Below are positions 3,136 to 55,181 of a stretch of DNA of 64,000 nucleotides, piece by piece. The stretch spans positions 7,093 to 71,092 of the forward strand of contig JBBTUB010000015.1 of assembly GCA_038064015.1 (NCBI GenBank), read 5' to 3'. This DNA is from Patescibacteria group bacterium. Its GTDB lineage: Bacteria > Patescibacteriota > Minisyncoccia > 2-02-FULL-40-12 > IGHO2-01-FULL-4-A. Below the pieces are notes generated by a model. The model worked only from the letters and a program-made list of their open reading frames with translations. It did not search any database and was not told the DNA's origin. Both the position numbers and the translations under genes were made by a program. The stretch's first letter is position 1; every line of letters starts with the position of its first letter.

Positions 3136-3144
3136 TCTAGCTCG

Positions 3145-5275: not shown

Positions 5276-5298
5276 TTGTGGTGTAGCCTGAAGATACT

Positions 5299-6949: not shown

Positions 6950-7021
6950 GGGCGACTAGTTCAGTGGTAGAACGCGTTCCTGATAAGAACGAGGTCGTAG
7001 GTTCGATTCCTACGTCGCCCA
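6950..7021 (+). tRNA. tRNA-Ile (anticodon GAU)
   Basis: Cloverleaf GGGCGAC/GUCGCCC acceptor, anticodon loop CUGAUAA, T-loop UUCGAUU. No encoded CCA. Confidence 0.85.
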
Positions 7022-7058
7022 CTTTCTTCTTTCTCTTCTTCTTTGGTATACTACATGT

Positions 7059-7886: not shown

Positions 7887-7887
7887 T

Positions 7888-7959
7888 GGGCCGTTAGCTC
7901 AGCGGTAGAGCACCTCATTTGCAATGAGGGGGTCAGCGGTTCAAATCCGCTACGGTCCA
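7888..7959 (+). tRNA. tRNA-Ala (anticodon UGC)
   Basis: Acceptor GGGCCGU/ACGGUCC with G3:U70 identity pair. Anticodon loop UUUGCAA. T-loop UUCAAAU. Confidence 0.85.
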
Positions 7960-7980
7960 CTTCTTCGCTAAAGCTACGAA

Positions 7981-10569: not shown

Positions 10570-11502
10570 ATGTCGCTGAAGCTTAAATTGCTGCTTTTTG
10601 CTGTAGTGCTTGGCGCACTCGGGCTTTCGTATCGTGCGATCTCCAAGGTCAGTCTTGGTCTTCCCGGAAGCCGTAATCTTGCCGCGAACGTCGTGCTCCC
10701 ACTGGATGCTCCTGATGCTGATCACGACGGCATCCCCGATGACGAGGAGGCACAGCATGACACCGATCCCTTCAAGGCCGATAGTGATGAGGATGGATAT
10801 CTTGACGGGGAAGAAGTGCTCTCCGGTTTTAGTCCGACGGAAAAAGACACGAAGAAAGAACAAGAAGAGAAGAAAAAAAAGGGGAACCTCACTCTGACCT
10901 ACCTCGAAAATATTATCGGCGGTGCGCTGGCAGGAGACTTGGATCCCAACAATCTCGAAACCTATACTGATAACTTGAATCTTACCGCGCTGGGGCTCCT
11001 TGATCGACTGCCTGATAAACTAACTCCTCCACCAACACGTCGCACGCTCACGGTCTTGGACAGCGATGATGCCGAAGAGCAAGAATACTTAGCGAACGCG
11101 GCTAAGTTTGTCAATTTTATTCCACCGCTCAATTTGTCATTTGAACGCATGGTCGCAAACACAAAGGACACTGGAGGATCGCAGGCGATCCAAATGTGGA
11201 AAATGCTGAGCACAATGTTTGACACGGCGGGAAGCAGGATTAATGCCCTGCCCGTCCCACAGGAATTCGTTGCTTGGCATGAAGAAGCGATAACGACGCT
11301 CGGGCGCGGCTCACGGCTCTACGATGCGCTTGGAAAGCTCAAAGAAGATCCACTCCTGGCCATGGCTTCACTTGATACGGTCCCGGATTTTATGGAACGC
11401 ATGATGAAGCTGTCCGATGACCTTAATGCCCTCATGATTGCCAAAAATCATTCTCTACGTGTCCACCCTCCAATAATTTTAAATGTCCCAAAGAAAAAAT
11501 AA
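10570..11502 (+). CDS. hypothetical secreted protein with acidic Ca-binding-like motifs (DADHDGIPDDEE / DSDEDGYLDGEE) and Lys/Glu-rich linker
   Basis: N-terminal signal/TM MSLKLKLLLFAVVLGALGLS. Thrombospondin-type-3-like DxDxDGxxDxxE motifs. First gene of the T4SS-like cluster. Confidence 0.45.
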   Translation: MSLKLKLLLFAVVLGALGLSYRAISKVSLGLPGSRNLAANVVLPLDAPDADHDGIPDDEEAQHDTDPFKADSDEDGYLDGEEVLSGFSPTEKDTKKEQEEKKKKGNLTLTYLENIIGGALAGDLDPNNLETYTDNLNLTALGLLDRLPDKLTPPPTRRTLTVLDSDDAEEQEYLANAAKFVNFIPPLNLSFERMVANTKDTGGSQAIQMWKMLSTMFDTAGSRINALPVPQEFVAWHEEAITTLGRGSRLYDALGKLKEDPLLAMASLDTVPDFMERMMKLSDDLNALMIAKNHSLRVHPPIILNVPKKK

Positions 11503-12604
11503 AATTATCATCCCTGCAATGATTGCCGCGATGCTCATCGGGCATGTAGCTGCAACCCATATCCCTACAGCAAAAGCAGTTTTTGGTATTGGGGATATCG
11601 TACTGGATACCAAGGCCTGGTTCGAAACCATCGATCAGAAGCTTGGGGCAAATGCCGCGAAGATTGCCTCGAAAGAAGTTGCCCGCATGCTCCGCACCCT
11701 CATCATCCACGCGATGGACGGCGGGCCGACATTTGTAACGAACTGGCGCAATCACTCGCGCAAGAGCCTGGATGGCGGAGGAACGATCGCTCGCAATCTG
11801 ATCGGAGAAGCGGCGTTTGGCGTCGATGGAGATCCGACGAGCGCCACCCTGTGCAATTTTTTCCGAGATTCAATCGGCAGTAAATTTAACGCGAAACCGG
11901 TTGATAAAGCTTTTGCGGATATCTCACGGGCATATCGCCTTGACGATGCGGGCACGTATAAACTTTTGACCAAGTGCACCTTGCCAACGACAATTTCAAT
12001 TGGCGGAGTACAGAAACCATTTGAGATTAAGAATTTTCAAGACTCTTTTGAGGGAGGATGGCCAGTCTTTGAAAAACTCCTTGAGCCCAACAATAACTAC
12101 TTTGGGGTATTGTCTATCACGGCCGCGGAGATCGGTAAGCAGCGCGAAGCACAAAAGCAATCGGCGCTCAATGAAGCCATTTCAGGTGGGGGATTTCTCT
12201 CGACCATTACCAAGAGTGGGCAAATCAAGAGTCCTGGAAAGCTCATTGGCGATACGGTAAGTAAACAGGTTGGGAGTATTTTCGATTGTCTCAATACCGT
12301 CATTTCATTTTCTTCCCTTGGGGTATGCATCACGGATTTCTCGATAATTGCCAACCAGGTGACTAATTTTCGCAACATCGCCGAATCCGCCGGGCTTCTG
12401 GATGATGAAAAAAGCGACGATGGAGACGCTGGCGATCCCGTGCCAACACCTGAAGTCGGGCCACCGGTCTGTGATAAAGCGTGTGGGGACGCTGCAGAAG
12501 CCACCTGCAACATGGATCCAAGCGTCAATAGCTCTATTCTCTACGAAGTATGCTTTAACCAAACATTTGATGAATGCAAGATAGAAATGTGCCAAGCGCA
12601 GTAA
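11483..12604 (+). CDS. hypothetical secreted protein, Cys-rich C-terminus
   Basis: 373 aa. N-terminal hydrophobic segment IIIPAMIAAMLIGHVAA. C-terminal CDKACGDAAEATCNMD...CFNQTFDECKIEMC. In T4SS-like cluster; may be a VirB5/VirB8-like accessory component, but there is no motif support. Confidence 0.4.
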   Translation: MSQRKNKIIIPAMIAAMLIGHVAATHIPTAKAVFGIGDIVLDTKAWFETIDQKLGANAAKIASKEVARMLRTLIIHAMDGGPTFVTNWRNHSRKSLDGGGTIARNLIGEAAFGVDGDPTSATLCNFFRDSIGSKFNAKPVDKAFADISRAYRLDDAGTYKLLTKCTLPTTISIGGVQKPFEIKNFQDSFEGGWPVFEKLLEPNNNYFGVLSITAAEIGKQREAQKQSALNEAISGGGFLSTITKSGQIKSPGKLIGDTVSKQVGSIFDCLNTVISFSSLGVCITDFSIIANQVTNFRNIAESAGLLDDEKSDDGDAGDPVPTPEVGPPVCDKACGDAAEATCNMDPSVNSSILYEVCFNQTFDECKIEMCQAQ

Positions 12605-12609
12605 TACTC

Positions 12610-15036
12610 ATGAGATCTAAGAGAATAAAAACAGCCATCGTTGCGCTACTCTTGCTCGCGATGCTCATCACACCGTTGGCGAGTGCGCAGGCGGGATCTT
12701 GGACTGATTATGTGACAGGAATATTAAAAGACGCTGCATGTGCAACGCCACTGGCAATTCTCAATCTAGAGGGGTGCGTTCTTCCGCCTCTTCTCAGCAT
12801 CGTAGGAACTATGGTTTCATGGTCAGCTGCTTTGCTGAATTGGCTTTTGGGGGCAAGCCAAGCTTTAGCGGCTCCCGATATCATCAGGTCATCGTGGGTA
12901 ATTTTTAGAGATTTCGTGAATATGTTTTTTATCCTCGCACTGATTATCATGGCATTTGGCACAATCTTCAATGTTAAAAACTATACGTTTAAAGAATTGT
13001 TTCCTCGATTTCTTTTCTCCGCACTGCTCATCAACTTTAGCTTAGAGATTGGCGTGTACGTACTGCGGGTTGCGAACGGTCTGGCTAGCGTATTTCTTGC
13101 CACCATCGGCGATGTCGGTGCCCGCCTTGCTGATGGACTCTTAATAACCAAAATAGCTTCACCGGAAGGCTTATCGGGAACTGCTGCGGCGGCACTAAAA
13201 GGAGTAGCTAGTGGGCCCGGGACTGCGATCACCATGCTTGCGTTCCTCGTATTCCTTATCATCATTTTGGGAACATTTTTGGCAGCGTCGATATTTATTC
13301 TTGCCCGCATTGTGGTCATTTGGTTTCTGCTTATCGTATCGCCGGTTGCGTGGTTTGGGTACACCTTACCGAGCCTACGGGCTGAGACGTGGAGTAAATG
13401 GTGGAAGGCATTTATCAGCTGGTCGTTTTTCCTCCCGACGTACTTATTTTTCATCATGTTCGCCTCTATTTTGTTGAGTGCGAAGAAGACTGTTGGCCTT
13501 ACCGTTGGAGGATATGATAATACTCTTGCAGCCGGGGACTATGCTAAGGCATTCTTCGAGGTTATCGGCCTCACCGATCTCCTCTTTTTTATTCTAGTCA
13601 TTATCGTACTCTTAGGAGGTATCGCAGCGTCTTTTAAAATCGGAGGGCTTGCCGCCAATGGCGCGGGGGCGGTCATGAGCTTTGCGCATGGGAGAGTGAA
13701 AGCGCTCCCAATTTTCCCCACAAAAGGAGCGGGTGGAAAGTGGGTAGGGAGAAGTATCGGCGATTGGGAGGGGGGCGCCAAGCAGCTTGGTTCTAGAATC
13801 CTGAAGTCCGGAATACCGCCAATCCTACCGGGAGTTGGAAAAATTCCCGGTATTCTTCGAGCGTTATGGACCGGGCAAGAGGGGCAAGAAGTGGCGGAGA
13901 AGGCAGTTGGCCAGAGCCTTCAGAGCACGCTTGGGTATGGCAACCTTGCTGAAGGAATGAAAGCTGAAAAAGCCGCGATTGATCATGCGCGTGAGATGCT
14001 TAAGCATGACCCGAAATTCACAGAAAAACTTCGGGACGCAAAATTAAAAGCAGACCTAGGAGAGGGAACTGATCTCATTGATGGGTTCAATAGAATGAAC
14101 TTTGAAACGATTGCCGAGTATCAGGAGCTTGCTGCAAAAGGCATGCTTTCTCCACAAGCATTGCGTGCCTTTGGCACAAAAATCGGTGATCGTAACTCAG
14201 ATGCCATGAAAGACGTGGGAGAGGCTCTTGCAAAATCAAGTTTCGGCGGATGGAAAGAAGAAGATATTTCTGAATTCTTAAAAGCGAAAGAAGATGGGCC
14301 TTACGACATCAAAGGCATGAAGGGCGCTAGAAAGAAAGGCCATGAATGGCTCATTTCTGACGATGGAAAACGAAGAATGCTTGGGCATGAATCTATAACC
14401 CTTGACGTGGTGAATCAAATGGCGAAGGATTATGGACCAGACTCAAACGAGATGCGTGGAGCTCTTCGCGAAATAGCCACAAAGCGAGCTGATCTTGCCG
14501 GAGAGTACAAAGCAATAGCGAAAGCAAAGGCCGAAGGAAGGGAATCCGCCACGGATGCTGAAGTCACAACTGCTACTCAGGAAGTTATTGAAGACAAAAC
14601 AGAACACGAATTAATGAGTATGAGTAAGATCGCTTTTGGGCAGGAGAGATTCATGCAAGCGGTATTAGGAAAACTTGAAAGCCTGCAATCAAAAGTCCCC
14701 ATGGGAGAATACGAAGATAAGTTCGATGCAGGTGCTATGGCAAAATACGTCCAAGGCATGCGGTCAGCGGGCGCGAGCGTCACAGATTTTCAAGAAAAAA
14801 TGCAGGATTTGACCAACGCACTCGGAAAAAATCGTGACGAACTTACGGTAAAAATACGTAACGCAGAAGGTAGAATTGAAGAAAGATCGATACATAACTA
14901 TAAGGAGGCCCTCGATATGGCCGCAAGCGAGAAGAAAGAGTGGGACATCAGGCGTCAAATTGCGGCTGATGAAAGACGTGATGATGCAAAGTTTGCCCGA
15001 GGGACTCGAGGACGCGGACCTAGAAGAACCACATGA
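12610..15036 (+). CDS. TrbL/VirB6-like polytopic inner-membrane protein with long hydrophilic coiled-coil C-terminal extension
   Basis: ATG at 12610, in frame with the 12574 ORF. Signal peptide, then at least 6 TM helices (aa ~60-360), then a ~440-aa Lys/Glu/Ala-rich tail. Architecture typical of TrbL/VirB6 family. Confidence 0.5.
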   Translation: MRSKRIKTAIVALLLLAMLITPLASAQAGSWTDYVTGILKDAACATPLAILNLEGCVLPPLLSIVGTMVSWSAALLNWLLGASQALAAPDIIRSSWVIFRDFVNMFFILALIIMAFGTIFNVKNYTFKELFPRFLFSALLINFSLEIGVYVLRVANGLASVFLATIGDVGARLADGLLITKIASPEGLSGTAAAALKGVASGPGTAITMLAFLVFLIIILGTFLAASIFILARIVVIWFLLIVSPVAWFGYTLPSLRAETWSKWWKAFISWSFFLPTYLFFIMFASILLSAKKTVGLTVGGYDNTLAAGDYAKAFFEVIGLTDLLFFILVIIVLLGGIAASFKIGGLAANGAGAVMSFAHGRVKALPIFPTKGAGGKWVGRSIGDWEGGAKQLGSRILKSGIPPILPGVGKIPGILRALWTGQEGQEVAEKAVGQSLQSTLGYGNLAEGMKAEKAAIDHAREMLKHDPKFTEKLRDAKLKADLGEGTDLIDGFNRMNFETIAEYQELAAKGMLSPQALRAFGTKIGDRNSDAMKDVGEALAKSSFGGWKEEDISEFLKAKEDGPYDIKGMKGARKKGHEWLISDDGKRRMLGHESITLDVVNQMAKDYGPDSNEMRGALREIATKRADLAGEYKAIAKAKAEGRESATDAEVTTATQEVIEDKTEHELMSMSKIAFGQERFMQAVLGKLESLQSKVPMGEYEDKFDAGAMAKYVQGMRSAGASVTDFQEKMQDLTNALGKNRDELTVKIRNAEGRIEERSIHNYKEALDMAASEKKEWDIRRQIAADERRDDAKFARGTRGRGPRRTT

Positions 15037-35711: not shown

Positions 35712-36736
35712 CGTCAGCGATCCGAAAAATTGACGCTTCCAGCGTTGAGGTGACGATAGAACTGGGGTCAAACGACCTCAAGGGGTACGTGGGTAAAGCC
35801 GAGGAGCGCATCGCTCAATCACTTAATCTTGAAGGGTTTCGGAAAGGCAAAGTTCCTCCTGAAGCAATTCGCCAGCGCGTTGGTGAGGCCGAGTTGCGCG
35901 AGGAAGCGCTCCAGATTGCAGTCCAAGAAAGCCTGGAAGAAGCAATCCAAAAAGAGGGCCTTGATGTCCTCGATCAGAGTAATTTCAGTATTAAAGATAA
36001 TACCCCCGAAAAGCTTCGGTACGTGCTTACGCTGACGCTTTACCCCAAGGTTACTTTGGGAAACTACCGAGGCATCGAAATAATAAAGCAGTCGCACGAG
36101 GTGAGCGACGCGGAGCTCCAGAAGGTTCTTGACGATCTGGTGGCGTCTCGGCGTTCGGGTGATATAACTCCTGAGCTCAATGACGAATTCGCAAAAAGCC
36201 TCGGTCATTTCGCTTCGCTGGAAGATTTAAAGTCCGGTGTCAAAACGGGATTGCTGCAAGAAAAGCAACTGCGAGAGCGTGATCGTGTTCGAGGCGAGGT
36301 GCTCAAAGCGATCATCGCCACGTCAAAGCTCGATGTTCCTAAGCTCATGATTGAGCGCCAGCTTGACGGGATGATCGCGAACTTTGATGAAGAGCTTCAC
36401 GCGCAGGGCATGGAGCTTGGCCCCTACCTGGCGCGTATCAAGAAAACGCAGGATCAGCTTCGCGCCGAGTGGTATCCGAAAGCCGAAGACCAGGTCAAAA
36501 TGACGCTCGTGCTCCACGCCGTGGGAAAAGCGGAGAAGATCACGATCACCGCGGCGGAGCTCCAGGAGGCGCTTGAGCTTCGTCTCCAGCAGTATCTTGC
36601 GGGCCGAAAGGAAGCCGGGACCGCCGAGGCGCTCAAAGATCTTGATCTGGAGCGAATCAAGCGAGGGCTATTCGGTAGCCTCTTGAATGAAAAGATTTTT
36701 GTGTTTCTCGAATCGAGTGCTATACTGACTTCGTGA
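35708..36736 (+). CDS. tig: trigger factor (lacking PPIase domain)
   Basis: Signature LEGFRKGKVP in the N-terminal ribosome-binding domain. 342 aa, with no FKBP-type PPIase domain apparent. Gene order after nusA is unusual. Confidence 0.65.
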   Translation: MTSAIRKIDASSVEVTIELGSNDLKGYVGKAEERIAQSLNLEGFRKGKVPPEAIRQRVGEAELREEALQIAVQESLEEAIQKEGLDVLDQSNFSIKDNTPEKLRYVLTLTLYPKVTLGNYRGIEIIKQSHEVSDAELQKVLDDLVASRRSGDITPELNDEFAKSLGHFASLEDLKSGVKTGLLQEKQLRERDRVRGEVLKAIIATSKLDVPKLMIERQLDGMIANFDEELHAQGMELGPYLARIKKTQDQLRAEWYPKAEDQVKMTLVLHAVGKAEKITITAAELQEALELRLQQYLAGRKEAGTAEALKDLDLERIKRGLFGSLLNEKIFVFLESSAILTS

Positions 36737-37056
36737 TATTTTCCACGAGATATTCTTATATCGTTTTGTGTGTCGGCCTTGCAGCCGTATTTTTTTGGTT
36801 CGGTATTAATAAATTCATCCACCCTGGAACTCAGCTCATCTACATCGGAACTCAGTTTGGCTACATCCAGGGGATTTTTGAGGTCCTGATCGGGTTGAGC
36901 CTTGTAAGTGGGGTCTTTACGAGATTTTTCTCGCTCCTGGGCGTTGTACTGCTTGTCGCAATCATCGTGGTCGCGGGCTTCAATGAGATTGCGGTTCGTG
37001 ATCTGGGACTCATCGGCGGGCTCTTGGCCATCTTCTTGTGGCCCGAGCGCCGGTAA
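36733..37056 (+). CDS. small DoxX-like membrane protein
   Basis: 107 aa, 3-4 TM helices (VLCVGLAAVFFWFGINKF..., GLSLVSGVFTRFFSLLGVVLLV...). Translationally coupled to downstream DsbA-like gene. Confidence 0.4.
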   Translation: MIFSTRYSYIVLCVGLAAVFFWFGINKFIHPGTQLIYIGTQFGYIQGIFEVLIGLSLVSGVFTRFFSLLGVVLLVAIIVVAGFNEIAVRDLGLIGGLLAIFLWPERR

Positions 37057-37070
37057 GGTATACTTCGTTT

Positions 37071-37781
37071 ATGGAAATTCCCGAAACACCGCCCGCAATG
37101 TTTACTCCTCCGGTCCGTCCGCCGTGGACCTACGCCGCGCTTCCGGTAGCCTTGGTGATCGCGGCCGTACTCATCGCCGGAAGCCTCGTATACACCAAAG
37201 GAGGCCCTCAAAAAGCCAGCGGCGGCCCCAAGACAGGCACGATCAATTATACCGTCGACGATCTCAAGATCTGGGCAGGCAAAATAAAAGGCATTGATAA
37301 AAAAGCATTTGCGACATGCCTTGATTCCGATAAGTATGCGGCTCGAGTCAAGCAAGATATGGAAAGCGGCTCGGCGCTTGGTGTAGATGGCACACCGTCA
37401 TTCTTTATCAATGGCACCCCCCTGGTTGGCGCACAGCCTATTGACCAATTTCGAGCGGCGATTGAGCAAGCGAAGACAAATCCGGGAAAAAAAATCAGCC
37501 TTGGAGCAGAAGATCATATCCTCGGCATGGAGAGCGCGCCGGTGACGATTGTCGAATATAGCGATTTTCAGTGCCCGTTTTGCCGGACATTTTTTGATCA
37601 GACCTACGGCCAGCTTAAAAAAGAATACATCGACACCGGTGTCGTAAAGCTTGCCTATCGCCATTTCCCACTGGGCTTTCATGCAGCCGCTCAAAAATCA
37701 GCGGAGGCCACCGAGTGTGCCAATGATCAAGGCAAATTCTGGGAGATGCATGACGCGATATTCTCGTTGCAGGCAAAATGA
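37071..37781 (+). CDS. DsbA/BdbD-family thiol:disulfide oxidoreductase, membrane-anchored
   Basis: N-terminal TM. Thioredoxin-fold CxxC active site FQCPFCRTFF. ...GVDGTPSFFINGT... typical DsbA C-terminal motif. Confidence 0.7.
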   Translation: MEIPETPPAMFTPPVRPPWTYAALPVALVIAAVLIAGSLVYTKGGPQKASGGPKTGTINYTVDDLKIWAGKIKGIDKKAFATCLDSDKYAARVKQDMESGSALGVDGTPSFFINGTPLVGAQPIDQFRAAIEQAKTNPGKKISLGAEDHILGMESAPVTIVEYSDFQCPFCRTFFDQTYGQLKKEYIDTGVVKLAYRHFPLGFHAAAQKSAEATECANDQGKFWEMHDAIFSLQAK

Positions 37782-39261: not shown

Positions 39262-39896
39262 TAGGAAGTTTTTTTATTAAAATGTATGGATATAAGTCCA
39301 TTAATGACAATCACGATCGTGTAAAAGAAGAGGCTCATTTGCATGATGGTCGTTATCCTTGCAAGAGAACTGACGGGATAAATATCGCCATATCCGACCG
39401 TAATGTAGGTGGCAAAACTAAAGTAAAGACTATCAAGGATATGCAAGGGATGAGAAAAAGACTCCGGATTGGCAATCGAAATCATTTGATACCAAAGAGC
39501 AAAAATAAGAACGAGTTGCATGACGTTAAGAGCGAACATGACGATGAGCCATTCACCGCGTTTTTGAGGATCATGAAAAAGAGAGAAGATTCTCCCGCGG
39601 TTGAAAATAAAATTGCGTGAATACACAATCATAAATTCAAGAACACGCTGTACGAGTAGTATGCAGATGATGACGCCTAACCAATAGGGGATGTATTGGA
39701 TCGTAAGAAGAAGACCAAAACACACGAACGTGATAACGATCATCATCACCTCCAACTTAATAAAAATCCGCTCGTCTGATTTCTTAAAAAACCATTGAGC
39801 GAATGTAAAGTTTCGATTTCCCCACTCGATACATCGGCTAAACCAAGAAATAATAAAGCTATGCTCCGAATGATGATGAAGTTCTTGTACAATGTG
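39261..39896 (-). CDS. potassium channel family protein (pore loop TVGYGD)
   Basis: Selectivity filter FSFATYITVGYGDIYPVS flanked by TM helices. The longest ORF (to 39920) would overlap tRNA-Lys, so the true start is probably internal. Confidence 0.6.
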   Translation of the reverse strand, partial: HIVQELHHHSEHSFIISWFSRCIEWGNRNFTFAQWFFKKSDERIFIKLEVMMIVITFVCFGLLLTIQYIPYWLGVIICILLVQRVLEFMIVYSRNFIFNRGRIFSLFHDPQKRGEWLIVMFALNVMQLVLIFALWYQMISIANPESFSHPLHILDSLYFSFATYITVGYGDIYPVSSLARITTIMQMSLFFYTIVIVINGLISIHFNKKTS

Positions 39897-39969
39897 TGCG
39901 CCCGGTTGGAGTCGAACCAACGACCTTCTCCTTAAGAGGGAGCAGCTCTACCAACTGAGCTACGGGCGC
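39897..39969 (-). tRNA. tRNA-Lys (anticodon CUU)
   Basis: Acceptor GCGCCCG/CGGGCGC. Anticodon loop CUCUUAA. T-loop UUCGACU. G27:A43 mismatch. Confidence 0.8.
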
Positions 39970-39999
39970 CGTGAAAAAATCCTAGCAGATTTTTTCACA

Positions 40000-40650
40000 C
40001 TATTCCAGTTCCGCTTCGATCGCGATGCGGTTTTTTGAGCTGCCGATGGGCCAGCAGGTGACGATGGCAAGAATAGGTTTCGCGTTGTTTTCTAATTCCG
40101 CAAGTCGCGCGTTACCGTCGGCTTCGAGCGGATTGAAGACGATGGACTGCTTCATACGATAGTTAAAAACTCTTCCGTCGCTGTACTTGACCGAGATGCG
40201 ATCTCCCGGCACGAGCTTGCCAATGAGCGCGCAGGGAGCGCCGTATTTGTTGTATTGCCACGGATAGAGCGAGCTGTGGCAGAGTACCGCCGAAAGACCG
40301 CCTTGGCCGGGTTTTGTGGTGGGAGAATAGTGTACCATGCCACCGGTGAGGTTTTTGTAGATGTCATCGGCATTAGCACCTACGCCAAATACGATCGGCA
40401 CCGAGACGTTTATTTTCTCGATCGTGATGGTTGCCTGATTCGGGAGTGGCTGTTGGTCAATCGTGGATACGGGCAGCAAGATGGGCTGGATCAGCGCGAG
40501 GCCGGATGCCGCAACCTTATGGTCATCCGGCTTCACGCGCTCAAACCAGTACTGCGCGTTGATATAGATCACCGGCCCGTTGACGAATACATATACCGCC
40601 ACCGCGGAGACGATGAATGCTTTGATAAAGCGAACGAGCATGGTGCTCAT
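40000..40650 (-). CDS. sortase-family transpeptidase
   Basis: N-terminal TM anchor. Catalytic His (AVLCHSS), TLxTC-like active site ILAIVTCWP, conserved Arg (KNRIAIEAEL). Confidence 0.7.
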   Translation of the reverse strand: MSTMLVRFIKAFIVSAVAVYVFVNGPVIYINAQYWFERVKPDDHKVAASGLALIQPILLPVSTIDQQPLPNQATITIEKINVSVPIVFGVGANADDIYKNLTGGMVHYSPTTKPGQGGLSAVLCHSSLYPWQYNKYGAPCALIGKLVPGDRISVKYSDGRVFNYRMKQSIVFNPLEADGNARLAELENNAKPILAIVTCWPIGSSKNRIAIEAELE

Positions 40651-40659
40651 ATACGGCTA

Positions 40660-43600
40660 TTATACCACGAAGTTAAACTTGTTCTTGTTCGCTTTTGCTT
40701 TTCCTACGATGCTCCACGCTTCATGCTTGCGGAAGAATCCGGTTTGCGTGTAGGCCATATAGCCAAGTGCGAGGGCGACGGTCAAGGCGAGTGAGAGTGC
40801 CACCGTACTGCCGGCACCGGTCTTGGGATCGGCGATGCCCACGAGCACGGAGCCATTATGGACTTTGATCGGAAGATCGTCGTGGATTTCGCCGATATTA
40901 TCTGCTCTTGTGTAGGCGACGTTGGTCATCGGGGTCACGCCTTTGGCAAAGTAGTCGGCATACTTGACGACTGCGTTGAATCGTACGATTGCTTCCTGAT
41001 TGGGCGCGAGTGAACCGATGTTAATGCCACCGCTGATGATGCCATCGGCGACCAAGTTGCCATTGAGGCTCGTGGTGTTATTGATGTACTGCAAGCCGTG
41101 TGGCAAGGTATCGCGTACGATCACGTTGTTCGCGGTGACCGAAGAGGTATTGCGAACGCGGATAAAGAAGTCTAGCGTATCACCGGGAGCGGCCTTCAGG
41201 GAGTTCTGCTCATTGATTTCTCCTTTGCTGACATTGCGACCCGTCTTGTGGATCGTGAGGCCGTAGCTCGGGGTGCTGTTGACGTAGACCGTGCAGGTCG
41301 CGTAGCCGTGCGCATTGTCAGATACGCTGATCGCGTAGGTGCCCGCTGCGTTGAAGCTCGTTGAGAATGAGCTTCCGGTGCCGCTGGTGCGCGTGCTATT
41401 GGCGGCATACCAGGAGTATGTTCCCGTGCCATTGTGGGCATTGAGGTACACAGTTTGGTACACGTTGGCGTACTGATAGGAAGGCGTGCAGTAAAGCTGC
41501 GACGTTTGCCGAGTGACATGGATCTGCGCGGTATCGTAGATTTGTGTGATGCCATCCGCGCGAGCGTAGCCATAGTTGGTAAGGGTGAGTGTGTTGTTGC
41601 TGAATTGGGCGCTATCGGAAACTTGCGCTCGGAAGATGATGGTTTTCGTCTGGCCGGGAGTCAGCGTGTTGATGTTGATCCCGCTGGTCGTAATCCCATC
41701 GCCGTAGTTGACGCCATCAACTTTAGTAGATCCACTCAGATACGTAACGTACGGAGGCAACGTGTCGGAGACGATCACGTTGTTGATGTTCGCACTGCCG
41801 GTATTGGTCACGCGAAGCATGAACTCTACCATATCCTGCGGCTGGGCATTGACTGACTCCGCTTCGCCATATCCGCGCGTGATGTTTGAAACACGCTTGC
41901 TGATTGAGAGCTGGCCCTGGTTGGGCTGGACATAGACTGAGCAGGTGTCGCTTTGATTGCCGCTGGTGACTGTAACGATCTTGGTGCCGGTGCTCCCGTA
42001 GGTCGTGCTAAAGCTTGAGCCGGTATTGCCGGAAGGATTGCCGGTGGGTGCTGACCAGCTGTAGGTGCCATTTCCGCCGGTTGCGGAGAAACTGACATAC
42101 TGATTCATGTTTATATTTTGGTTCGAGGGACTGCATACCACGACTGGAGTGTTTTTGGTTACTAAGACTGATGCCTGGGCACTCAAGGTCGAGGTGCCAT
42201 CTGCGCGCGCGTAGGCCGTATTAACGAGCGTCTCGGTACCAATACTGAATTGACTATCGCCAGCGACTTGAGCGCGGAAGCGAATTTCCCGAGTCTGGCC
42301 GGAAACCGTCGTATTGATGTTGATGCCGCCATTGACGAAGTTATCGCTGGCAGTCGAGCCATCAACCGTTACTGAGCCACTGATGAAGTTGAGGCGGCCG
42401 GGAAGCGTATCGCTCACAAAGGTATTGGTCGCGCTGCCGGTGCCGCTGTTGGTTACTCGGATGACAAACTCAACCGTATTGCCGGGAATAGCAGTAACCG
42501 ACGTCGCTTCTCCGGAGTTTTGGGTTACATTGAGAACACGCTTTGAGATGCTCAATGACGGAGTAAGGTCGGTGTGGCTTTGCACTTTGTCAAACGCGGC
42601 GCATACTGCGGTGAGACTATTGTGGCTTGAATTGTCAGGATGCGCGGCATGTGCCGGAATGATCGTCGAGACCGCTGAGCCGAGCACGAGGGCGGTGTTC
42701 ACGATATCATTGCGAACATAGCTCTGGTTTTGAGGAATGTCTCTGCTCGCATTGGTGCGGGCAACCATGTTGCCATTGCTGCCTTTCAGTTCAAGATAGT
42801 ACTGTTCACGCTGTTGGTTTTCCTGATTCGGGTGATCGTCAAAAGACTCCAGCGTTACCCGGTAGGTGCCGGCGGGAAGCGAGGCATGTGCGTTCTCTTG
42901 CGTGCGGCGTCCGGCGCCGGACTTTGAGCTCATCCAGACGTTGTTGGGATCGTTGATGCCGTTGTGAAACTTGACGAGCGTGCGGCTCTCGTAGCCCGCA
43001 GGTGTCGCTGGCCCAAGGTTGCAGTTCAATGAGGTGAGATCGGTATTTGGAGTAGGACGAGGGGTCGGAGTGGGAGTGGCGATTACTTCAGGGGCGACAA
43101 CACGAACCTTAAACGTAATGTAGCGGAGGTGTTCGTAACAGCCCTGTTGATTGCCTAAGTTGATGGTTTCGTGATTGCCGATGGAACGGGTTGTTCCCAC
43201 CTGGCTAAGATCATCCCGCAGGATTCGCAACGTGCCGGGAATGATTTCCAGGGTTTCATCTGCACTGGTTTTAAAAAGATATCCGCCGCTGATCTTGGAA
43301 GCGTTGTCAGCCTTCGCATCAACGTAGACGCCGTGGCTTGTGCCCGTGCCGGCATCCGTGCGAATTTCCACTCGGACATTTTTAGCGGTCGTGATGCCGT
43401 CGATTCCCGTATCGAGGGCGCCATTATGCACATAGATGCGTACGGTACCTTCTTGGCCGGCATGGAGTGTCGTGCCTTGCTCAAGCTGGGCATCGCTCAT
43501 GGGGTATGAGCCGCCATCAGCTTTTCCTGAAACCAGGGGATAGTCGCCACAAGCATCTGAACCCGTGTAGTCAACCGGGAAAGGATTTAAGCGTGCCCCA

Positions 43601-43770
43601 TTTTTATAGGTGGTGCAATCCGTCGCGGATACGTTGCTGGGCGTCGACAGCGCCAAGCCAAAAGCCACTCCTGCGAGAGCTACTGCTACGACTGCGAGAC
43701 TCACTTTCATATTGCGAATACTCATACTATTTTTTCGGTATTCCAGGCCCATTACCTCCGGAATACACAA
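40660..43770 (-). CDS. large cell-surface protein with three DUF11 (TIGR01451 conserved repeat) domains and C-terminal sorting-signal-like anchor
   Basis: 1036 aa. Signal peptide. Three repeats of ...V(T/R)N(S/T)GxxxxxNxxVxDTLPxxLxxxxGSxxVDG. PTPTP linker. C-terminal IADPKTGAGS + hydrophobic helix + basic tail (RKHEAW...KAKANKNK). Confidence 0.7.
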   Translation of the reverse strand: MCIPEVMGLEYRKNSMSIRNMKVSLAVVAVALAGVAFGLALSTPSNVSATDCTTYKNGARLNPFPVDYTGSDACGDYPLVSGKADGGSYPMSDAQLEQGTTLHAGQEGTVRIYVHNGALDTGIDGITTAKNVRVEIRTDAGTGTSHGVYVDAKADNASKISGGYLFKTSADETLEIIPGTLRILRDDLSQVGTTRSIGNHETINLGNQQGCYEHLRYITFKVRVVAPEVIATPTPTPRPTPNTDLTSLNCNLGPATPAGYESRTLVKFHNGINDPNNVWMSSKSGAGRRTQENAHASLPAGTYRVTLESFDDHPNQENQQREQYYLELKGSNGNMVARTNASRDIPQNQSYVRNDIVNTALVLGSAVSTIIPAHAAHPDNSSHNSLTAVCAAFDKVQSHTDLTPSLSISKRVLNVTQNSGEATSVTAIPGNTVEFVIRVTNSGTGSATNTFVSDTLPGRLNFISGSVTVDGSTASDNFVNGGININTTVSGQTREIRFRAQVAGDSQFSIGTETLVNTAYARADGTSTLSAQASVLVTKNTPVVVCSPSNQNINMNQYVSFSATGGNGTYSWSAPTGNPSGNTGSSFSTTYGSTGTKIVTVTSGNQSDTCSVYVQPNQGQLSISKRVSNITRGYGEAESVNAQPQDMVEFMLRVTNTGSANINNVIVSDTLPPYVTYLSGSTKVDGVNYGDGITTSGININTLTPGQTKTIIFRAQVSDSAQFSNNTLTLTNYGYARADGITQIYDTAQIHVTRQTSQLYCTPSYQYANVYQTVYLNAHNGTGTYSWYAANSTRTSGTGSSFSTSFNAAGTYAISVSDNAHGYATCTVYVNSTPSYGLTIHKTGRNVSKGEINEQNSLKAAPGDTLDFFIRVRNTSSVTANNVIVRDTLPHGLQYINNTTSLNGNLVADGIISGGINIGSLAPNQEAIVRFNAVVKYADYFAKGVTPMTNVAYTRADNIGEIHDDLPIKVHNGSVLVGIADPKTGAGSTVALSLALTVALALGYMAYTQTGFFRKHEAWSIVGKAKANKNKFNFVV

Positions 43771-43901: not shown

Positions 43902-44678
43902 CTAGATGTTGTTCCCTTGAACTCGGCTCTGATTCTGCTTGTGGGCCTGGCCGTTCAGGATGATGCCGAGCACGGTGCCGGCGCCCCCCACGATCGGGAT
44001 CCCGATGCAGACCTTCTTGTGGCGTCCGCACCAGGAGCGCTTCTTGACCACGACGGGTGGCGTCGCTGGACACGTCGGACAGGTGGGACAGTTCGGGCAG
44101 GACTCCTTCACGATCCGCTCCACCTCCTTCGTAACGATCCTTTCGACAGTTTGAGGTGGGGGAAGGTAGGCATCACCCGCTGTTACCTTGTTGCCGCACC
44201 GGTCGACCACGAGGATGTTGCAAAGTTTACCGCGGTCGGGGAGCTCTGAGCAGGACGACTCCTTGACGTGGACTGCTTCTCCTGGCTTCAAGGTCACAAC
44301 CGTAGAGTTGCAGTGGGCATCGAGGAACGAGACCACTGCAGGCTTCACGAGGTGGACGCCGAGTTGGCCGGGTTGTTGCCAGCTTGCGAGGAACCCTCGC
44401 TTGCTCTGGGGGTTGGATCGGATGATCTTGTCCGAGTCCTGATCCCGCATGTCTTTGCTGTTCTTGATGCACAGTGCCGGAATTTCCGTAGACCGATTGT
44501 AGTAGTCGGGCGTGGGTAAGTCGGTATTGAGCTCACAACGGCAGGGGCTTCCAGCACTCGTTGTCTCACTCGTGTCCTTTGGTGCTGCCGCCTTGGTGGG
44601 CGGGGCGACCACGACCACGAATAGGAGTTCGAGCAATGCCGCGAGAAGAAGACGACGCAAACGGAGACTGAGCATCAT
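43902..44678 (-). CDS. hypothetical secreted Cys-rich protein with C-terminal TM; GC-rich, probably horizontally acquired
   Basis: 258 aa. Signal peptide (LLLAALLELLFVVVVA), CPNCPTCPTCP motif, C-terminal helix VCIGIPIVGGAGTVLGIIL. Local GC and GC3 clearly higher than flanks. Confidence 0.5.
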   Translation of the reverse strand: MMLSLRLRRLLLAALLELLFVVVVAPPTKAAAPKDTSETTSAGSPCRCELNTDLPTPDYYNRSTEIPALCIKNSKDMRDQDSDKIIRSNPQSKRGFLASWQQPGQLGVHLVKPAVVSFLDAHCNSTVVTLKPGEAVHVKESSCSELPDRGKLCNILVVDRCGNKVTAGDAYLPPPQTVERIVTKEVERIVKESCPNCPTCPTCPATPPVVVKKRSWCGRHKKVCIGIPIVGGAGTVLGIILNGQAHKQNQSRVQGNNI

Positions 44679-44880
44679 GGCAACGGCCTTTTTTCCTGGT
44701 TCGGAGTTGACTGATCTGAGTTTTGAAGAACACTATTTTTGCCTGCACTTGCCGACAAATAGCTATAACCGATCCGGTTCCAGCTATCTGCGGGTAAATA
44801 AATAGCCTCTTTCAGGCTGAACGTACTATACACCACTGGAAAATTAAAGTCAAGTGTGGTAGGGTAAATGGTGAATCCAC

Positions 44881-46678: not shown

Positions 46679-47350
46679 TTACACTTTGGGATTATAGAGC
46701 ATCCCCTGGTAAATTTCAATCCATTTCAATAGTTTTTCTTTAAGTTTTCGGCTATGGATCAAAATCATACATGATCCTGAAGAGAATCGCTTCGTGGTCT
46801 TGGCACGCTTAATGATAATAGATTTCTGGAATAACGCAGCTGGAATTCCTAAAAGTTTCGCCCACGTGCTTTTTTGGACGGAATCAATCAAGTCAGGATA
46901 GAGAATGAGGCGCATCTTTATCTGTTCCTCGTTGGCAAGCTCATTGGTTAGCAGAAACGAGCGAAATGCCCGAATCATTTCATGATCGTTGCTCGTGAAG
47001 CGAACTTGGCTGTTTGCGGACGAAGTATCCCCTCGTGTCCAGTAGAGCACGATGCCCGCAAGAAAACGGGCTTGTTTGCTCAGTTCAAGAAAATCTTTTA
47101 TTGCCTCGGTGCGATATTGGTTATGCACACCCTGCCAGTATCGGCGTACAGCTTTAGGAAGTTGTCTGGCTCGGACTTTCGCTTCTTGCGCCGCTTGCGA
47201 AGTGCGCTGCGTACGGACTTTTTGAGACCACGTTTCTTGAGAAAACCAAGAACTGAGCGTACTTTTAGGAACTCCAAATTTCTTGCTAATTTCCGTATAG
47301 CTTTTTCCGGCCTCGCGCATTTCCTTGGCTTTTTGACGCTCTTTTCTCAT
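46679..47350 (-). CDS. HTH-domain protein, possibly mobile-element/homing-endonuclease related
   Basis: N-terminal HTH (GKSYTEISKKFGVPKSTLSSW). Downstream FLAGIVLYWTRGD is only weakly LAGLIDADG-like. Lies between tRNA-Gly and tRNA-Phe. Confidence 0.4.
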   Translation of the reverse strand: MRKERQKAKEMREAGKSYTEISKKFGVPKSTLSSWFSQETWSQKVRTQRTSQAAQEAKVRARQLPKAVRRYWQGVHNQYRTEAIKDFLELSKQARFLAGIVLYWTRGDTSSANSQVRFTSNDHEMIRAFRSFLLTNELANEEQIKMRLILYPDLIDSVQKSTWAKLLGIPAALFQKSIIIKRAKTTKRFSSGSCMILIHSRKLKEKLLKWIEIYQGMLYNPKV

Positions 47351-48897: not shown

Positions 48898-49548
48898 TCA
48901 AAAGAACTTCATTCCAATAGCTTTCTCGATTTTCAATCGTTTCCGTGATAGACAAACAACCCGCTTATCATAATACATTTTTGGCAGTAATTGCAATGAT
49001 TCACCCTTGGCGTACTTGAGCTGATAGGCAGTTCCTTTTCCGCCTTTGCCCGTAAGATGGCCAGAGACTCCAGTATGGAGCTTTATTGTTTCTCTAAGCC
49101 ATTGAATATGCTTGAGGCTGGCCGATACAAACACCGTGTAGAACATGAAGCTTGATCGCCATCGTGGATCCATGTATGAATAAAATGATCCATCTCCATC
49201 AAAGCAACCGCGCAAGAAATCAAAAAAGTATTCTTCGGGAATTTTAAGTGCTCCCATCGTTTTCGACTTTGCAGGCGTCAAACCAATCTCCATCAGATAA
49301 CGATAAAAGAGCACGTCTCCGAACTGAACATGAAAATATTTTTTCTCTTCGGAATATCCCCGAGATTTTTTGCCAATTTTCACCGTGAGTCCCAGACAAT
49401 CAACAAAGTTGTTGGCTTGCTCGATGTCTTTCGTAGTTAGACTCAAATGCCTCCCGTCATTGTAAAGACATCCATCAGTAGTTATGAGGCCTATCGCGTA
49501 GGCGAATTTAGGAGACCATTCTATTTTGATCGTACCTAACGGTCTCAT
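48898..49548 (-). CDS. double-motif LAGLIDADG homing endonuclease, free-standing
   Basis: Motif 1 YAIGLITTDGCL and motif 2 FLRGCFDGDGSF about 100 aa apart. 216 aa. Located between tRNA-Leu and rplS. Confidence 0.75.
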   Translation of the reverse strand: MRPLGTIKIEWSPKFAYAIGLITTDGCLYNDGRHLSLTTKDIEQANNFVDCLGLTVKIGKKSRGYSEEKKYFHVQFGDVLFYRYLMEIGLTPAKSKTMGALKIPEEYFFDFLRGCFDGDGSFYSYMDPRWRSSFMFYTVFVSASLKHIQWLRETIKLHTGVSGHLTGKGGKGTAYQLKYAKGESLQLLPKMYYDKRVVCLSRKRLKIEKAIGMKFF

Positions 49549-53158: not shown

Positions 53159-54350
53159 CTAATTGCTTGGAGATGGTCAAAAGCATTTTATGATCTTTGG
53201 GATCAAGAGAAACGATGGCGACCGGAATCTGGGCGCCAACTTTGACGACTTCTGAAGGTTTTTTATTATCAAATTCCGCCAATGGCACAAGGCCGGTGAT
53301 TTCTTCGTCGAGGCTTACCAGGGCGCCATAGTTGGTCAGTTTCACCACTTTGCCCGTCAGATTCTGACCGACGCTGTATCGCTCGGGAGCCTTTTCCCAC
53401 GGGTCGGTTTTGAGCGCTTTGAGCGAAAGTGAAACCTTGCCACCTTCAATACTGATAATCTTCGCCGACACCGCTTGTCCGCTGGCCAAGAAATCACGAG
53501 GATTGTCGATGATTTTCCAGTCAATCTCCGAAATATGGATTAAGCCTTCAAGCTTGGTGGTCGAGGCCGCTTCTTTTGGCTTCAAAAGTACGAATGCTCC
53601 AAAGTCGGTGACGTCCGTGATCGTGCCTTCGACAATCTCGCCGAGCGTAAATTTCGCGAGTTCTTCTTGAATGTTTGCTTCCCCGATCGCTTTTTCTGAA
53701 ACGATCAATCGGTTTTCATCCTCGGAAAAATCAAGGATTTTGACTTGAAACTCAGCATTGCGGAATTTTTGGAGCGCCTGGACGATCTTGGTCGTATCAC
53801 CGCCTTCGACTTTCGGATAGTGGTCGGGAGACAGCTGTGAGAGTGGCAAGAAGCCCTGGACGCCGTTGAGCTCCACAATCAACCCACCCTTATTAATATT
53901 AACGATTTTCGTCGAAATTATTTCACCTTTGTCTTTCTTTTCCTTGATATCTTCCCAGGCGGTCGTGCGCTGGGCGCGCTTGAGGGAGAGATCGCGATAG
54001 CCAAGCCCGTCTTCATCCTCAATATCAAGAAATACCGCCGAGATTTGCTGGCCGGCCTGGAGTGCTTTTTGCAACGAGGTATTGTCGTAAAATTCTCCCG
54101 GGTAGACGATGCCGGTGCCCAAGGATCCGAGGTCGATCATGACCGCGTTCTTGCTAACGCTCAAAATTTCTCCCTGGACGACACTCCCCGGCTTGGGAAG
54201 GTCGATGTCAGTTTTCGCCAGTAGGTCTTTCATAGAAAGACCGGGCTCCGTAGGTAAAATTATAGGATCCATAAGTTTCAAGAGTCTATCATGTTTTTTT
54301 TGTGCTGGCAATCCTGGTATACTGGGATCATGAAATCGTGGCACGCGCAT
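53142..54350 (-). CDS. rpsA: 30S ribosomal protein S1-like (multiple S1 RNA-binding domains)
   Basis: At least four S1-fold repeats (e.g. GSVVQGEILSVSKNAVMIDLG, GEIISTKIVNINKGGLIVEL, GEIVEGTITDVTDFGAFVLL, GQNLTGKVVKLTNYGALVSL). Confidence 0.75.
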   Translation of the reverse strand: MRVPRFHDPSIPGLPAQKKHDRLLKLMDPIILPTEPGLSMKDLLAKTDIDLPKPGSVVQGEILSVSKNAVMIDLGSLGTGIVYPGEFYDNTSLQKALQAGQQISAVFLDIEDEDGLGYRDLSLKRAQRTTAWEDIKEKKDKGEIISTKIVNINKGGLIVELNGVQGFLPLSQLSPDHYPKVEGGDTTKIVQALQKFRNAEFQVKILDFSEDENRLIVSEKAIGEANIQEELAKFTLGEIVEGTITDVTDFGAFVLLKPKEAASTTKLEGLIHISEIDWKIIDNPRDFLASGQAVSAKIISIEGGKVSLSLKALKTDPWEKAPERYSVGQNLTGKVVKLTNYGALVSLDEEITGLVPLAEFDNKKPSEVVKVGAQIPVAIVSLDPKDHKMLLTISKQLDEVTS

Positions 54351-55181
54351 CTCTTGCGTACCGAGGTGATGGTTTTTTTGCTGGGGTTGGCGATTTTCGC
54401 CGAGATTGCCTTTCTCGCAGCTGTTTTTGTGGTGCTTCCGGAGTCAGGATTTCTCGCGCTGATCGCTCCCGATGCTTTGACCCGATCGGCAAACGCGGCA
54501 CGGCAAGACACTCAAAGCCCCGTACTGATTACCAATCCGCTCCTTACCAAAGCTGCCCAGCTCAAAGCCAATGACATGGCTACCAAAAGCTATTTCGCTC
54601 ATACGAGTCCGGCGGGTGTTACCCCCTGGTATTGGCTTGATCAGGTTGGGTATCGCTATAGCAGTGCGGGAGAGAATCTCGCGGTTGATTTTATCGACTC
54701 AAGCGACGTGCACCAGGCGTGGATGAATTCTCCCGGCCACCGCGCGAATATTCTCAATGCCGGATATACCGAAATCGGCATCGCGACGGCCACGGGGATT
54801 TATAAAGGCCACGAGACTGTTTTTGCGGTGCAGTTTTTTGGGAAACCCCGTAATACAACATCCGATAGCGGCTCTGCGAGCCGCATCGCGAAGCAGTCGG
54901 ATGTTGATATACGGGGAAACCCCGTGTTCTCGTTCTCGGTCGCTCAAGCGGAGGAATCCGGTGCTGCGGCAACGCTTGCCGCAAGCCCTCGAAAAGTCAC
55001 AAATTACGGCTTTGCCGTTGTCGGCATCTTGATCGTATTGGCGCTGGGGTTGACCATCCTCATCCGCATGGAACTTCCTCACCCTCAAAAAGCTATTTTG
55101 CCCATGGCAACGATTGCGATCATCATCTCGTTTATTCTGATCAATCACAAGATCGCTCTGGCAGGGCTGCAGATTCTTTGA
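54330..55181 (+). CDS. CAP/SCP/PR-1 domain protein (YkwD-like), membrane-anchored at both ends
   Basis: CAP motifs HTSPAGV...GENLA...WMNSPGHRANIL...YTEIGIA. N-terminal and C-terminal hydrophobic helices. Start taken at MKSWHAH (ATG 54330). Confidence 0.6.
   Translation: MKSWHAHLLRTEVMVFLLGLAIFAEIAFLAAVFVVLPESGFLALIAPDALTRSANAARQDTQSPVLITNPLLTKAAQLKANDMATKSYFAHTSPAGVTPWYWLDQVGYRYSSAGENLAVDFIDSSDVHQAWMNSPGHRANILNAGYTEIGIATATGIYKGHETVFAVQFFGKPRNTTSDSGSASRIAKQSDVDIRGNPVFSFSVAQAEESGAAATLAASPRKVTNYGFAVVGILIVLALGLTILIRMELPHPQKAILPMATIAIIISFILINHKIALAGLQIL

Follow-up and report, generated by a model that had tools for sequence, protein, structure and literature searches.

A probable sortase-substrate pair with a conserved, non-LPXTG sorting tail in a Patescibacteria genome

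We analysed a stretch of 64,000 nucleotides (nt), hereafter the window, from contig JBBTUB010000015.1 of the Patescibacteria assembly GCA_038064015.1, in which two adjoining genes encode a large surface protein, which we call the substrate (40660..43770), and a sortase (40000..40650), with 9 nt between the stop of the former and the start of the latter. An earlier note, made from the sequence alone, had proposed that the two are a dedicated pair of enzyme and substrate. Patescibacteria, among them the Saccharibacteria, spend their life attached to a host bacterium and, to our knowledge, little has been established about their attachment molecules beyond type IV and Pam pili. All the coordinates are positions in the window and, for these two genes and their parts, refer to the reverse strand.

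The coordinates of the sortase open reading frame (ORF; 216 aa, GenBank MEK7583146.1, 'MAG: sortase') were confirmed. The protein was matched by Pfam Sortase PF04203 with 60 bits against a cutoff of 26.6 (E 2.6e-16), and by TIGR01076 sortase_fam with 24 bits, under the cutoff of 39.35. We aligned it with 20 homologues sharing 42-78% identity, and in the resulting 21 sequences His125 (LCHSS), Cys199 (IVTCWP, equivalent to TLxTC) and Arg208 (KNRIAI) showed no variation. The codons of these three catalytic residues were checked and lie at 40276..40278, 40054..40056 and 40027..40029, respectively.

The AlphaFold2 (AF2) model obtained from the homologue alignment, with a predicted local distance difference test (pLDDT) of 81.8, has a membrane helix at its N-terminus (residues 3-39), from which a linker of low confidence leads to a sortase beta-barrel (residues 72-215), hence it has both the eight-stranded barrel and the membrane anchor of the sortase superfamily. 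No C-terminal transmembrane (TM) segment is present in the model, in which the chain stops at the last barrel strand (209-215 of 216). Foldseek gave 118 matches in the PDB at E<=1e-3, all sortases among the 50 matches listed, and the model was about equidistant from structures of classes A, C, D, E and F (E ~1e-10, 15-26% identity). Searching the PDB by sequence returned marginal matches, the best to a class C enzyme (E 0.003) and to SrtE1 (E 0.02). As a side observation, two further cysteines, Cys124 and Cys140 (40276-40281 and 40231-40233), co-vary across the homologues, in which LCHSS occurs with GAPCAL and LGHSS with GAPFAL, so that a lineage-specific disulfide may exist beside the catalytic His.

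Classification by hidden Markov models (HMMs), which the earlier note had put forward as a check, placed the enzyme in none of the classes A-F, with scores of 22-30 bits against cutoffs of 140-166. Precisely, the NCBIfam models gave 29.7 bits for SrtD (cutoff 140), 28.6 for class E (160), 26.8 for class D (165), 22.4 for class C (160) and 22.2 for class F (166), and those of classes A and B gave no match. All 21 aligned family members behaved alike (best E ~1e-12), and the label assigned by the Prokaryotic Genome Annotation Pipeline is 'sortase' only. The protein is a true sortase outside every curated class A-F. Neither of the marks of class C, a C-terminal TM anchor and an active-site lid, was found in it, and inspection of the alignment revealed no lid-like DP(W/F/Y) motif. 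The class E sortases of Actinobacteria (LAXTG) are like it in being type-II membrane enzymes without a C-terminal TM segment and in accepting a residue other than Pro at P3, and they are among its best structural and HMM neighbours. They differ from it by the low class E score given above, by an identity of 21-23% with the solved SrtE structures and by their motif, which has Leu at P4 and Ala, instead of V/I, at P3.

For the substrate gene, the longest ORF runs for 1036 aa from a TTG codon, whereas GenBank sets the start at 43725 (MSIRN; 1021 aa, MEK7583147.1, 'hypothetical protein'). The orthologues start at an equivalent Met-Lys followed by the same hydrophobic segment, and comparison with them indicates 43710 (MKVSL; 1016 aa) as the likely biological start. 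Hence the 1036 aa of the earlier note hold for the ORF and are an upper bound for the protein, whose real start is probably downstream. The predicted Sec signal peptide, MKVSLAVVAVALAGVAFGLALSTPSNVSA (43624..43710), was read from the sequence and ends in VSA|T.

The N-terminal head that follows (42577..43623) comprises two Cys-containing domains, aa 50-227 and aa 245-398, joined by a Pro/Thr linker; it is conserved in five orthologues, with Cys52, 74, 211, 250 and 390 invariant. It had no match in Pfam and none in the PDB by sequence, also when a profile of the head was used, and its single-sequence AF2 model (pLDDT 35.9) was unusable for assigning a fold. We presume that the head is the ligand-binding part.

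Between the head and the C-terminus there are three CLIPPER/DUF11 repeats alternating with two PKD-like domains. The three TIGR01451/DUF11 repeats reported in the earlier note were found again by both models, each in three stretches: Pfam DUF11 (PF01345) with 110 bits (cutoff 24.6) and TIGR01451 with 128 bits (cutoff 24). Repeat 1 (42157..42564) has K410/D454/N517 as candidate isopeptide triad, repeat 2 (41512..41919) has K625/D669/N732 and repeat 3 (40855..41265), which includes the best stretch for both models (aa 857-954), has K842/D887/N950. PKD-like domain 1 (41923..42144; Cys546...Cys610) was matched by Pfam PKD with 27.5 bits at aa 548-606, and PKD-like domain 2 (41275..41496; Cys761...Cys826) aligns to it in an internal alignment.

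The CLIPPER/DUF11 domain is a CnaA-like domain, with a Lys-Asn isopeptide bond shown by crystallography, that forms the stalks of fibrillar adhesins (PMC12617251). In the internal alignment the three repeats have their conserved Lys, Asp and Asn in register, and these residues follow one another as reported for structure 9IFR (PMC12617251). Because of this register and of the known CLIPPER isopeptide (PMC12617251), the stalk is likely to be isopeptide-stabilised. A sequence search of the PDB with the CLIPPER/PKD part gave nothing significant and did not recover 9IFR. The substrate shares with the CLIPPER-stalk fibrillar adhesins (PMC12617251) the signal peptide, the N-terminal head, the tandem CLIPPER stalk, the C-terminal sorting domain and Lys/Asp/Asn positions compatible with a CnaA-type isopeptide; it differs from them in a sorting domain that is not among the catalogued ones and in a head without detectable relatives in Pfam or PDB. 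For another CPR (Candidate Phyla Radiation) bacterium, a role in attachment to the host has been proposed for large surface proteins that contain DUF11 (PMC8080830).

At the C-terminus of the substrate, the residues IADPKTGAGS are followed by a hydrophobic segment of 19 residues and then by a basic tail of 29 residues. The putative sorting motif, D981-P-K-T984-G985, lies at 40816..40830, with the predicted scissile bond at T984|G985; the hydrophobic, membrane-spanning segment (40750..40806) ends in a conserved YxxY, and the basic cytoplasmic tail (40663..40749) reads TxTxxF-RK-x-EA...KFNF. The layout is that of an LPXTG-type signal, with motif, hydrophobic segment and positive tail at the extreme C-terminus. 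The pentapeptide L-P-x-T-G itself is not present, being D-P-K-T-G in the window and variable at P4 in the family. The NCBIfam models for sorting signals scored the window tail under their cutoffs (LPXTG_anchor, TIGR01167, 10.3 against 15.9; Rumino_NPXTG, 14.5 against 23.5) and did not match seven other family tails, four of the eight tails scanned being of the (V/I)PTG type. Classical LPXTG signals have a short, unconserved tail. That of the window is about 3-5 times longer than usual.

To collect relatives of this C-terminus, word-indexed protein searches returned too few matches (three with the C-terminal 199 aa and one with an alignment of 11 tails), therefore an exhaustive profile search was needed. 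We searched a tail profile of 71 positions against 1.84 billion representative proteins and obtained 157 matches at E<=1e-3, of which 34 at E<=1e-10. Nearly all of them finish at the C-terminus of the protein or within a few residues of it. Among the full-length carriers, CLIPPER/DUF11 domains were found in 62/71 and PKD domains in 16/71, with fn3 in 4, cohesin in 1 and N_BRCA1_IG-like domains also in a few.

Over 151 tails, the residue was T in 98% at P1 and G in 99% at P1'. At P3 we found V in 78%, I in 15% and P in 1%; at P2, P in 31%, K in 23% and Q in 17%; at P2', P in 58%, A in 21% and T in 15%, and the three positions after that have G, D/E and S, in this order. After the hydrophobic segment, Y is conserved in 94% and 98% at profile positions 39 and 42, which form the YxxY, and the cytoplasmic part conserves T (76-79%), F (82%), RR (66-70%), E (56%) and A (64%) and ends in F/L-N-F, giving the consensus YxxYTxTxxF-RRREA...F/L-N-F. 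The C-terminus is at a median distance of 50 aa from the motif Gly (interquartile range 49-51). The commonest pentapeptides were QVPTG (the most frequent, 14/148 tails), GVQTG, GVATG and GVKTG; VPTG occurred in 34/148 tails. In the tails of the orthologues that we fetched the variants were NVPPTG, GIQTG, TVPTG, GVKTG, RIRTG and GVQTG, and a 79%-identical fragment from a relative carries DIKTG. In an independent set of 67 non-redundant metagenome tails, P3 was V in 54 and I in 6 of 63, T was present in 63/66 and G in 66/66.

Hence the core of the family, as read from these alignments, is (V/I)-x-T-G-(P/A/T), in which the Asp of the window is unconserved and its Pro is an outlier. The recognition motif proposed in the earlier note, xDPKTG or [AD]PKTG, is not that of the family: PKTG was found in 1/148 tails, the window copy, in line with the 1% of Pro at P3. 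The proposal of a tripartite signal other than LPXTG, made of motif, TM segment and basic tail, was instead borne out, with a motif conserved among homologues, and the frequencies of T and G speak against a mere TM anchor without conserved motif, a case that the note had considered. It had missed the most distinctive feature, namely the TM segment and cytoplasmic tail of fixed length and conserved sequence.

We then considered how regularly the two genes occur together. The window contains a single sortase, and both a regular expression and the tail HMM picked out a single tail-bearing ORF in it. A scan of genome contigs with the single sortase as query gave one locus only. A scan of metagenomes with the sortase alignment gave 80 loci, of which 43, with at least 1.3 kb upstream, were evaluable. 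We counted a locus as linked if it had a tail-bearing ORF on the strand of the sortase and within 1.5 kb of it. This was the case in 41 of these 43 loci, the two exceptions carrying the most divergent sortases, as well as in the window and in loci L001-L011 and L013-L016. Precisely, all the loci fetched via sortase homologues (L001-L011) have a tail-bearing gene adjoining the sortase; as for the loci fetched via substrates, the sortase is directly downstream in L013, L014 and L015/L016, and L012 ends before that position. The linkage of this sortase family with the tail is near-obligate and is not due to chance, in agreement with the cognate pair that had been proposed. Neither of the two cases that the earlier note had named as refuting its proposal applies, given the conserved motif and the conserved pairing.

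The number of substrates per sortase varies. In L013 (6001-13588) the module is duplicated in tandem (1025-aa substrate, sortase, 1001-aa substrate, second sortase), with NVPTG and NIPTG as motifs of the substrates and 59% identity between the sortases. The second of these substrates has a shortened tail (YRIFKKKGGSSKDKDKFNFAS). Three substrates surround the single sortase of L015, and 2-4 tail-bearing genes per sortase occur in the relatives L005, L015, L067, L070 and L072. The term dedicated, used in the earlier note, is plausible for the window, with its one substrate in 64 kb, and unproven genome-wide.

The gaps between substrate and sortase in the metagenome loci are bimodal, either up to about 60 nt, plus one of 202 nt, or 0.8-1.1 kb. 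In 24/24 metagenome loci with the larger gap (e.g. L019, L024, L029) the intervening gene encodes a protein that has a CAP/SCP (PR-1-like) domain and, at its C-terminal end, membrane segments; CAP genes were also noted in L005 (4951-5835) and L012 (5258-6145). The sorting module may have an accessory factor in this CAP protein. The CAP homologue of the window (54291-55181, forward strand) is unlinked, about 11 kb away, with 40% identity over 141 aa.

Taken with these observations, the reading that we prefer, and that we hold to be probable, is that the two genes form a module of cognate sortase and substrate in the genome of a Candidatus Saccharibacteria (Patescibacteria/CPR) bacterium, a module which would follow the classical pathway with a lineage-specific signal. 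The large protein would be exported by Sec via its N-terminal signal peptide and would fold outside the membrane as a head on a stalk of three CnaA-like CLIPPER domains, probably isopeptide-locked, and two PKD-like domains, being retained in the membrane by its C-terminal tripartite sorting domain. The adjoining type-II membrane sortase (His125/Cys199/Arg208) would recognise (V/I/P)-x-T-G, here PKTG, and its Cys199 would attack the Thr984-Gly985 bond, with cleavage and formation of a thioacyl intermediate. The adhesin would then be transferred to an amine nucleophile, most probably a peptidoglycan precursor, and be displayed covalently on the cell wall, where it would plausibly attach the cell to a host bacterium, the TM segment and tail of 51 residues being left in the membrane. 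We propose cleavage between T and G because the triad and the T-G are invariant, the geometry is fixed, the genes are linked, and C. difficile SrtB and S. pyogenes SrtC2 provide precedents.

As regards these precedents, the bond that SrtB of C. difficile cleaves in SPKTG and PPKTG is the one joining T to G (PMC4155245). The SrtB motif is also without Leu at P4 and contains P-K-T-G, so that the DPKTG of the window fits xPKTG, and its substrates are adhesin-like proteins with signal peptide, motif, TM segment and basic tail (PMC4155245). However, SrtB is a class B enzyme, and the window sortase had no match with the NCBIfam class B model; moreover, in our family V/I rather than P occupies P3, the tail is long and conserved, and the motif of the window, 51 residues from the C-terminus, is beyond the range of 17-45 residues searched for C. 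difficile (PMC4155245). In S. pyogenes, SrtC2 anchors a protein with QVPTGV (PMC11231552). The likeness here consists of V at P3 and P at P2 before T-G, QVPTG being the commonest pentapeptide of our family, and of a specialised sortase gene adjoining its substrate gene (PMC11231552, citing Barnett 2004). The differences are that S. pyogenes is a Firmicute and not a CPR bacterium, that our family has its own conserved TM segment and tail, and that the window copy is PKTG. In the light of (S/P)PKTG (PMC4155245) and of QVPTGV (PMC11231552), the motif that the earlier note had called unusual is indeed non-LPXTG but less unprecedented than it implied.

In CPR bacteria, a sortase family, fam000526, present in more than half of the genomes has been discussed together with DsbA/MdbA-like oxidoreductases (PMC6744442). 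As in that study (Meheust et al. 2019), which draws the link between MdbA and sortase for CPR and Actinomyces (PMC6744442), we found a sortase with a DsbA-like gene, here syntenic. The study differs from ours in dealing with presence and absence only, without substrates, sorting motif or gene pairing. No described sortase substrates or motifs of CPR bacteria or Saccharibacteria were found in the searchable literature. Sortases in CPR bacteria and motifs other than LPXTG are already known, and the enzyme subfamily and the tail are both outside the curated models. The Pam pilus system of Saccharibacteria was discarded as an explanation, as it works by donor-strand exchange with chaperones and has no sortase.

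Several points weigh against the cognate module as we have described it. As the tail profile takes in the last CLIPPER strand with its first ~16 positions, the list of matches may be biased toward CLIPPER proteins. The tail, with its ~29 highly conserved residues, differs from that of classical signals, a hint that it has a further function or another one altogether. In two groups of close orthologues, L002/L003 (GQYGAN) and L007/L008 (IPKGGAN), the Thr at P1 is missing, as seen in independent assemblies; since their sortases keep the His/Cys/Arg triad, either the specificity is loose or the link has relaxed in some lineages. The activity of a sortase-family enzyme on this signal is deduced from sequence, model and analogy, and the acceptor, the cell's own peptidoglycan, is assumed from Gram-positive models. 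In addition, our view of this genome was of 64 kb, which limits the term dedicated. One may also suppose a sorting system mechanistically distinct from the classical Gram-positive one, in which the tail is a second functional module, rather than an element that passively stops transfer, and the CAP protein is involved. In such a system the conserved tail may be a docking or gating site coupling sorting to a cytoplasmic or membrane partner, or it could be released as a C-peptide signalling the load of surface proteins; another possibility is that the acyl intermediate is resolved on an acceptor not of the cell itself, e.g. the cell wall of an actinobacterial host, giving a covalent attachment of epibiont and host. 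We judge such a distinct system to be distinctly unlikely.

The loci with 2-4 tail-bearing genes around one sortase would also agree with a housekeeping enzyme, i.e. the only or main sortase of the organism serving several scattered substrates with (V/I)xTG tails, in which case adjacency would be merely the commonest arrangement. The position of the locus among NusA, trigger factor and tRNA genes, in conserved synteny and not in an island, points the same way, as does the presence of a sortase family in more than half of the CPR genomes (PMC6744442). We consider this rather unlikely, given the one tail-bearing ORF and one sortase of the window and the one sortase per substrate in tandem of L013, which speaks for one-to-one pairing in at least some lineages. 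Furthermore, no substrate was seen far from a sortase, though the sampling was centred on sortases.

Tight clusters of a sortase with several substrates resemble pilus islands too. A class C-style polymerase, joining CLIPPER proteins head-to-tail by Thr-Lys isopeptide bonds, would be consistent with the typical presence of CnaA/CnaB-type isopeptide domains in pilins that sortases assemble (PMC12617251), and the commonest pentapeptide, QVPTG, recalls the QVPTGV of the FCT pilus region of S. pyogenes (PMC11231552). The enzyme itself makes this very unlikely, being without the C-terminal TM segment and the DP(W/F/Y) lid-like motif of class C and scoring 22 bits against 160 with that model. The YPK-type pilin motif (YPKN-like) is absent from 12/12 substrates, and the window locus has a single substrate of ~1000 aa, far above the typical size of a pilin. 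A last explanation sees the C-terminus as a permanent, uncleaved TM anchor with a cytoplasmic interaction tail, with the neighbouring sortase acting elsewhere or as a non-catalytic partner. The length of the tail, its conservation beyond that of discarded sorting signals, the replacement of Thr in L002 and L007 and the scores of the window tail under the NCBIfam LPXTG_anchor and NPXTG thresholds would all fit. An anchor of this kind would however hardly explain a T-G invariant in 98-99% of the tails, with V/I at -2 and at a fixed distance just outside the TM segment, nor a linkage of 95% to an enzyme with an invariant catalytic triad, and we regard it as extremely unlikely.

If the cognate module is as we propose, host binding has a concrete candidate in a conserved CLIPPER adhesin that belongs to the core genome and is anchored by a sortase, and the tail profile is a practical predictor of the covalently displayed surface proteome in uncultured Patescibacteria. 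In fact, standard LPXTG models and search windows miss this tail, which falls under the cutoff and has its motif 51 residues from the C-terminus. The apparent (V/I)xTG specificity outside classes A-F could broaden the classification of sortases and might supply an orthogonal enzyme for sortagging. The principle of a sortase with a tripartite signal is well known, so that the finding is an extension, and mechanistically an expected one.

The neighbours of the pair in the window include genes for a PilB-type ATPase, NusA, trigger factor, DoxX, a DsbA-like oxidoreductase, cysteine desulfurase, a NUDIX protein and a K+ channel, and many tRNAs. The nearest genome locus, L001, has a sortase 67% identical and the same gene order. 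The pair belongs to the conserved chromosome and not to an island, because its core-gene neighbours recur in the same order in L002, L004, L007 and L009. The DsbA-like thiol-disulfide oxidoreductase (CPFC; 37038..37781, forward strand; Pfam Thioredoxin_4 115.6 bits, DSBA 72 bits) is encoded near the pair, in synteny, in these same four loci, and is possibly a folding helper for the Cys-containing adhesin and the sortase. More generally, the DoxX and DsbA-like genes together (36733-37781, forward strand) are syntenic with the sortase locus in most related loci.

As for the transcription unit, a hairpin of 13 bp (39971..39998, reverse strand; minimum free energy -13.8 kcal/mol, z = -5.45) lies between the sortase stop and tRNA-Lys(CTT), which is beyond it at 39896-39969, and probably marks where the transcription unit ends or where the transcript is processed. 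Upstream of the substrate, a gene of 258 aa (43902..44678, reverse strand) encodes a signal peptide, a Cys-rich globular part (CPNCPTCPTCP), a Pro-rich stretch and a C-terminal TM segment. Genes with the same architecture and position were found in L001 (973-1755), L002 (2939-3784), L004 (2162-2896) and L007 (181-960), but the sequence is barely conserved, similarity being detectable only within L001/L002 and within L004/L007. With architecture and position kept and sequence not, we did not count this gene as a conserved component of the system, and its membership is uncertain. A promoter-like site, TTGACT-17-TATAGT (44825..44853, reverse strand), with 10/12 matches, is a possible start of a three-gene transcript; it is a weak signal, with 4 such sites against 2.8 expected, and the promoter and terminator scans of the window were not above background.

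Elsewhere in the window, several large ORFs of 524, 540, 529, 373 and 820 aa (1561-6888 and 11483-15036) had no Pfam match at E<=1e-4, as is typical of CPR 'dark matter', and carry no sorting tail. The genes of tRNA-Ile(GAT) and tRNA-Ala(TGC) (6950-7960, forward strand), a pair usual in the spacers of rRNA operons, flank a LOG/'lysine decarboxylase'-family gene (7059-7886), and no rRNA was detected in the 64 kb; a LOG-family gene is also near the sortase loci L005 and L015. Among the tRNA genes there are an HTH_23 ORF and a LAGLIDADG_3-like ORF (46679-47350 and 48898-49548, reverse strand), and ORFs of the same two kinds, with faint Pfam matches and of 223 aa each, lie near the sortase in L014 (890-2342). 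They may be homing-endonuclease-like genes or the remnant of a mobile element.

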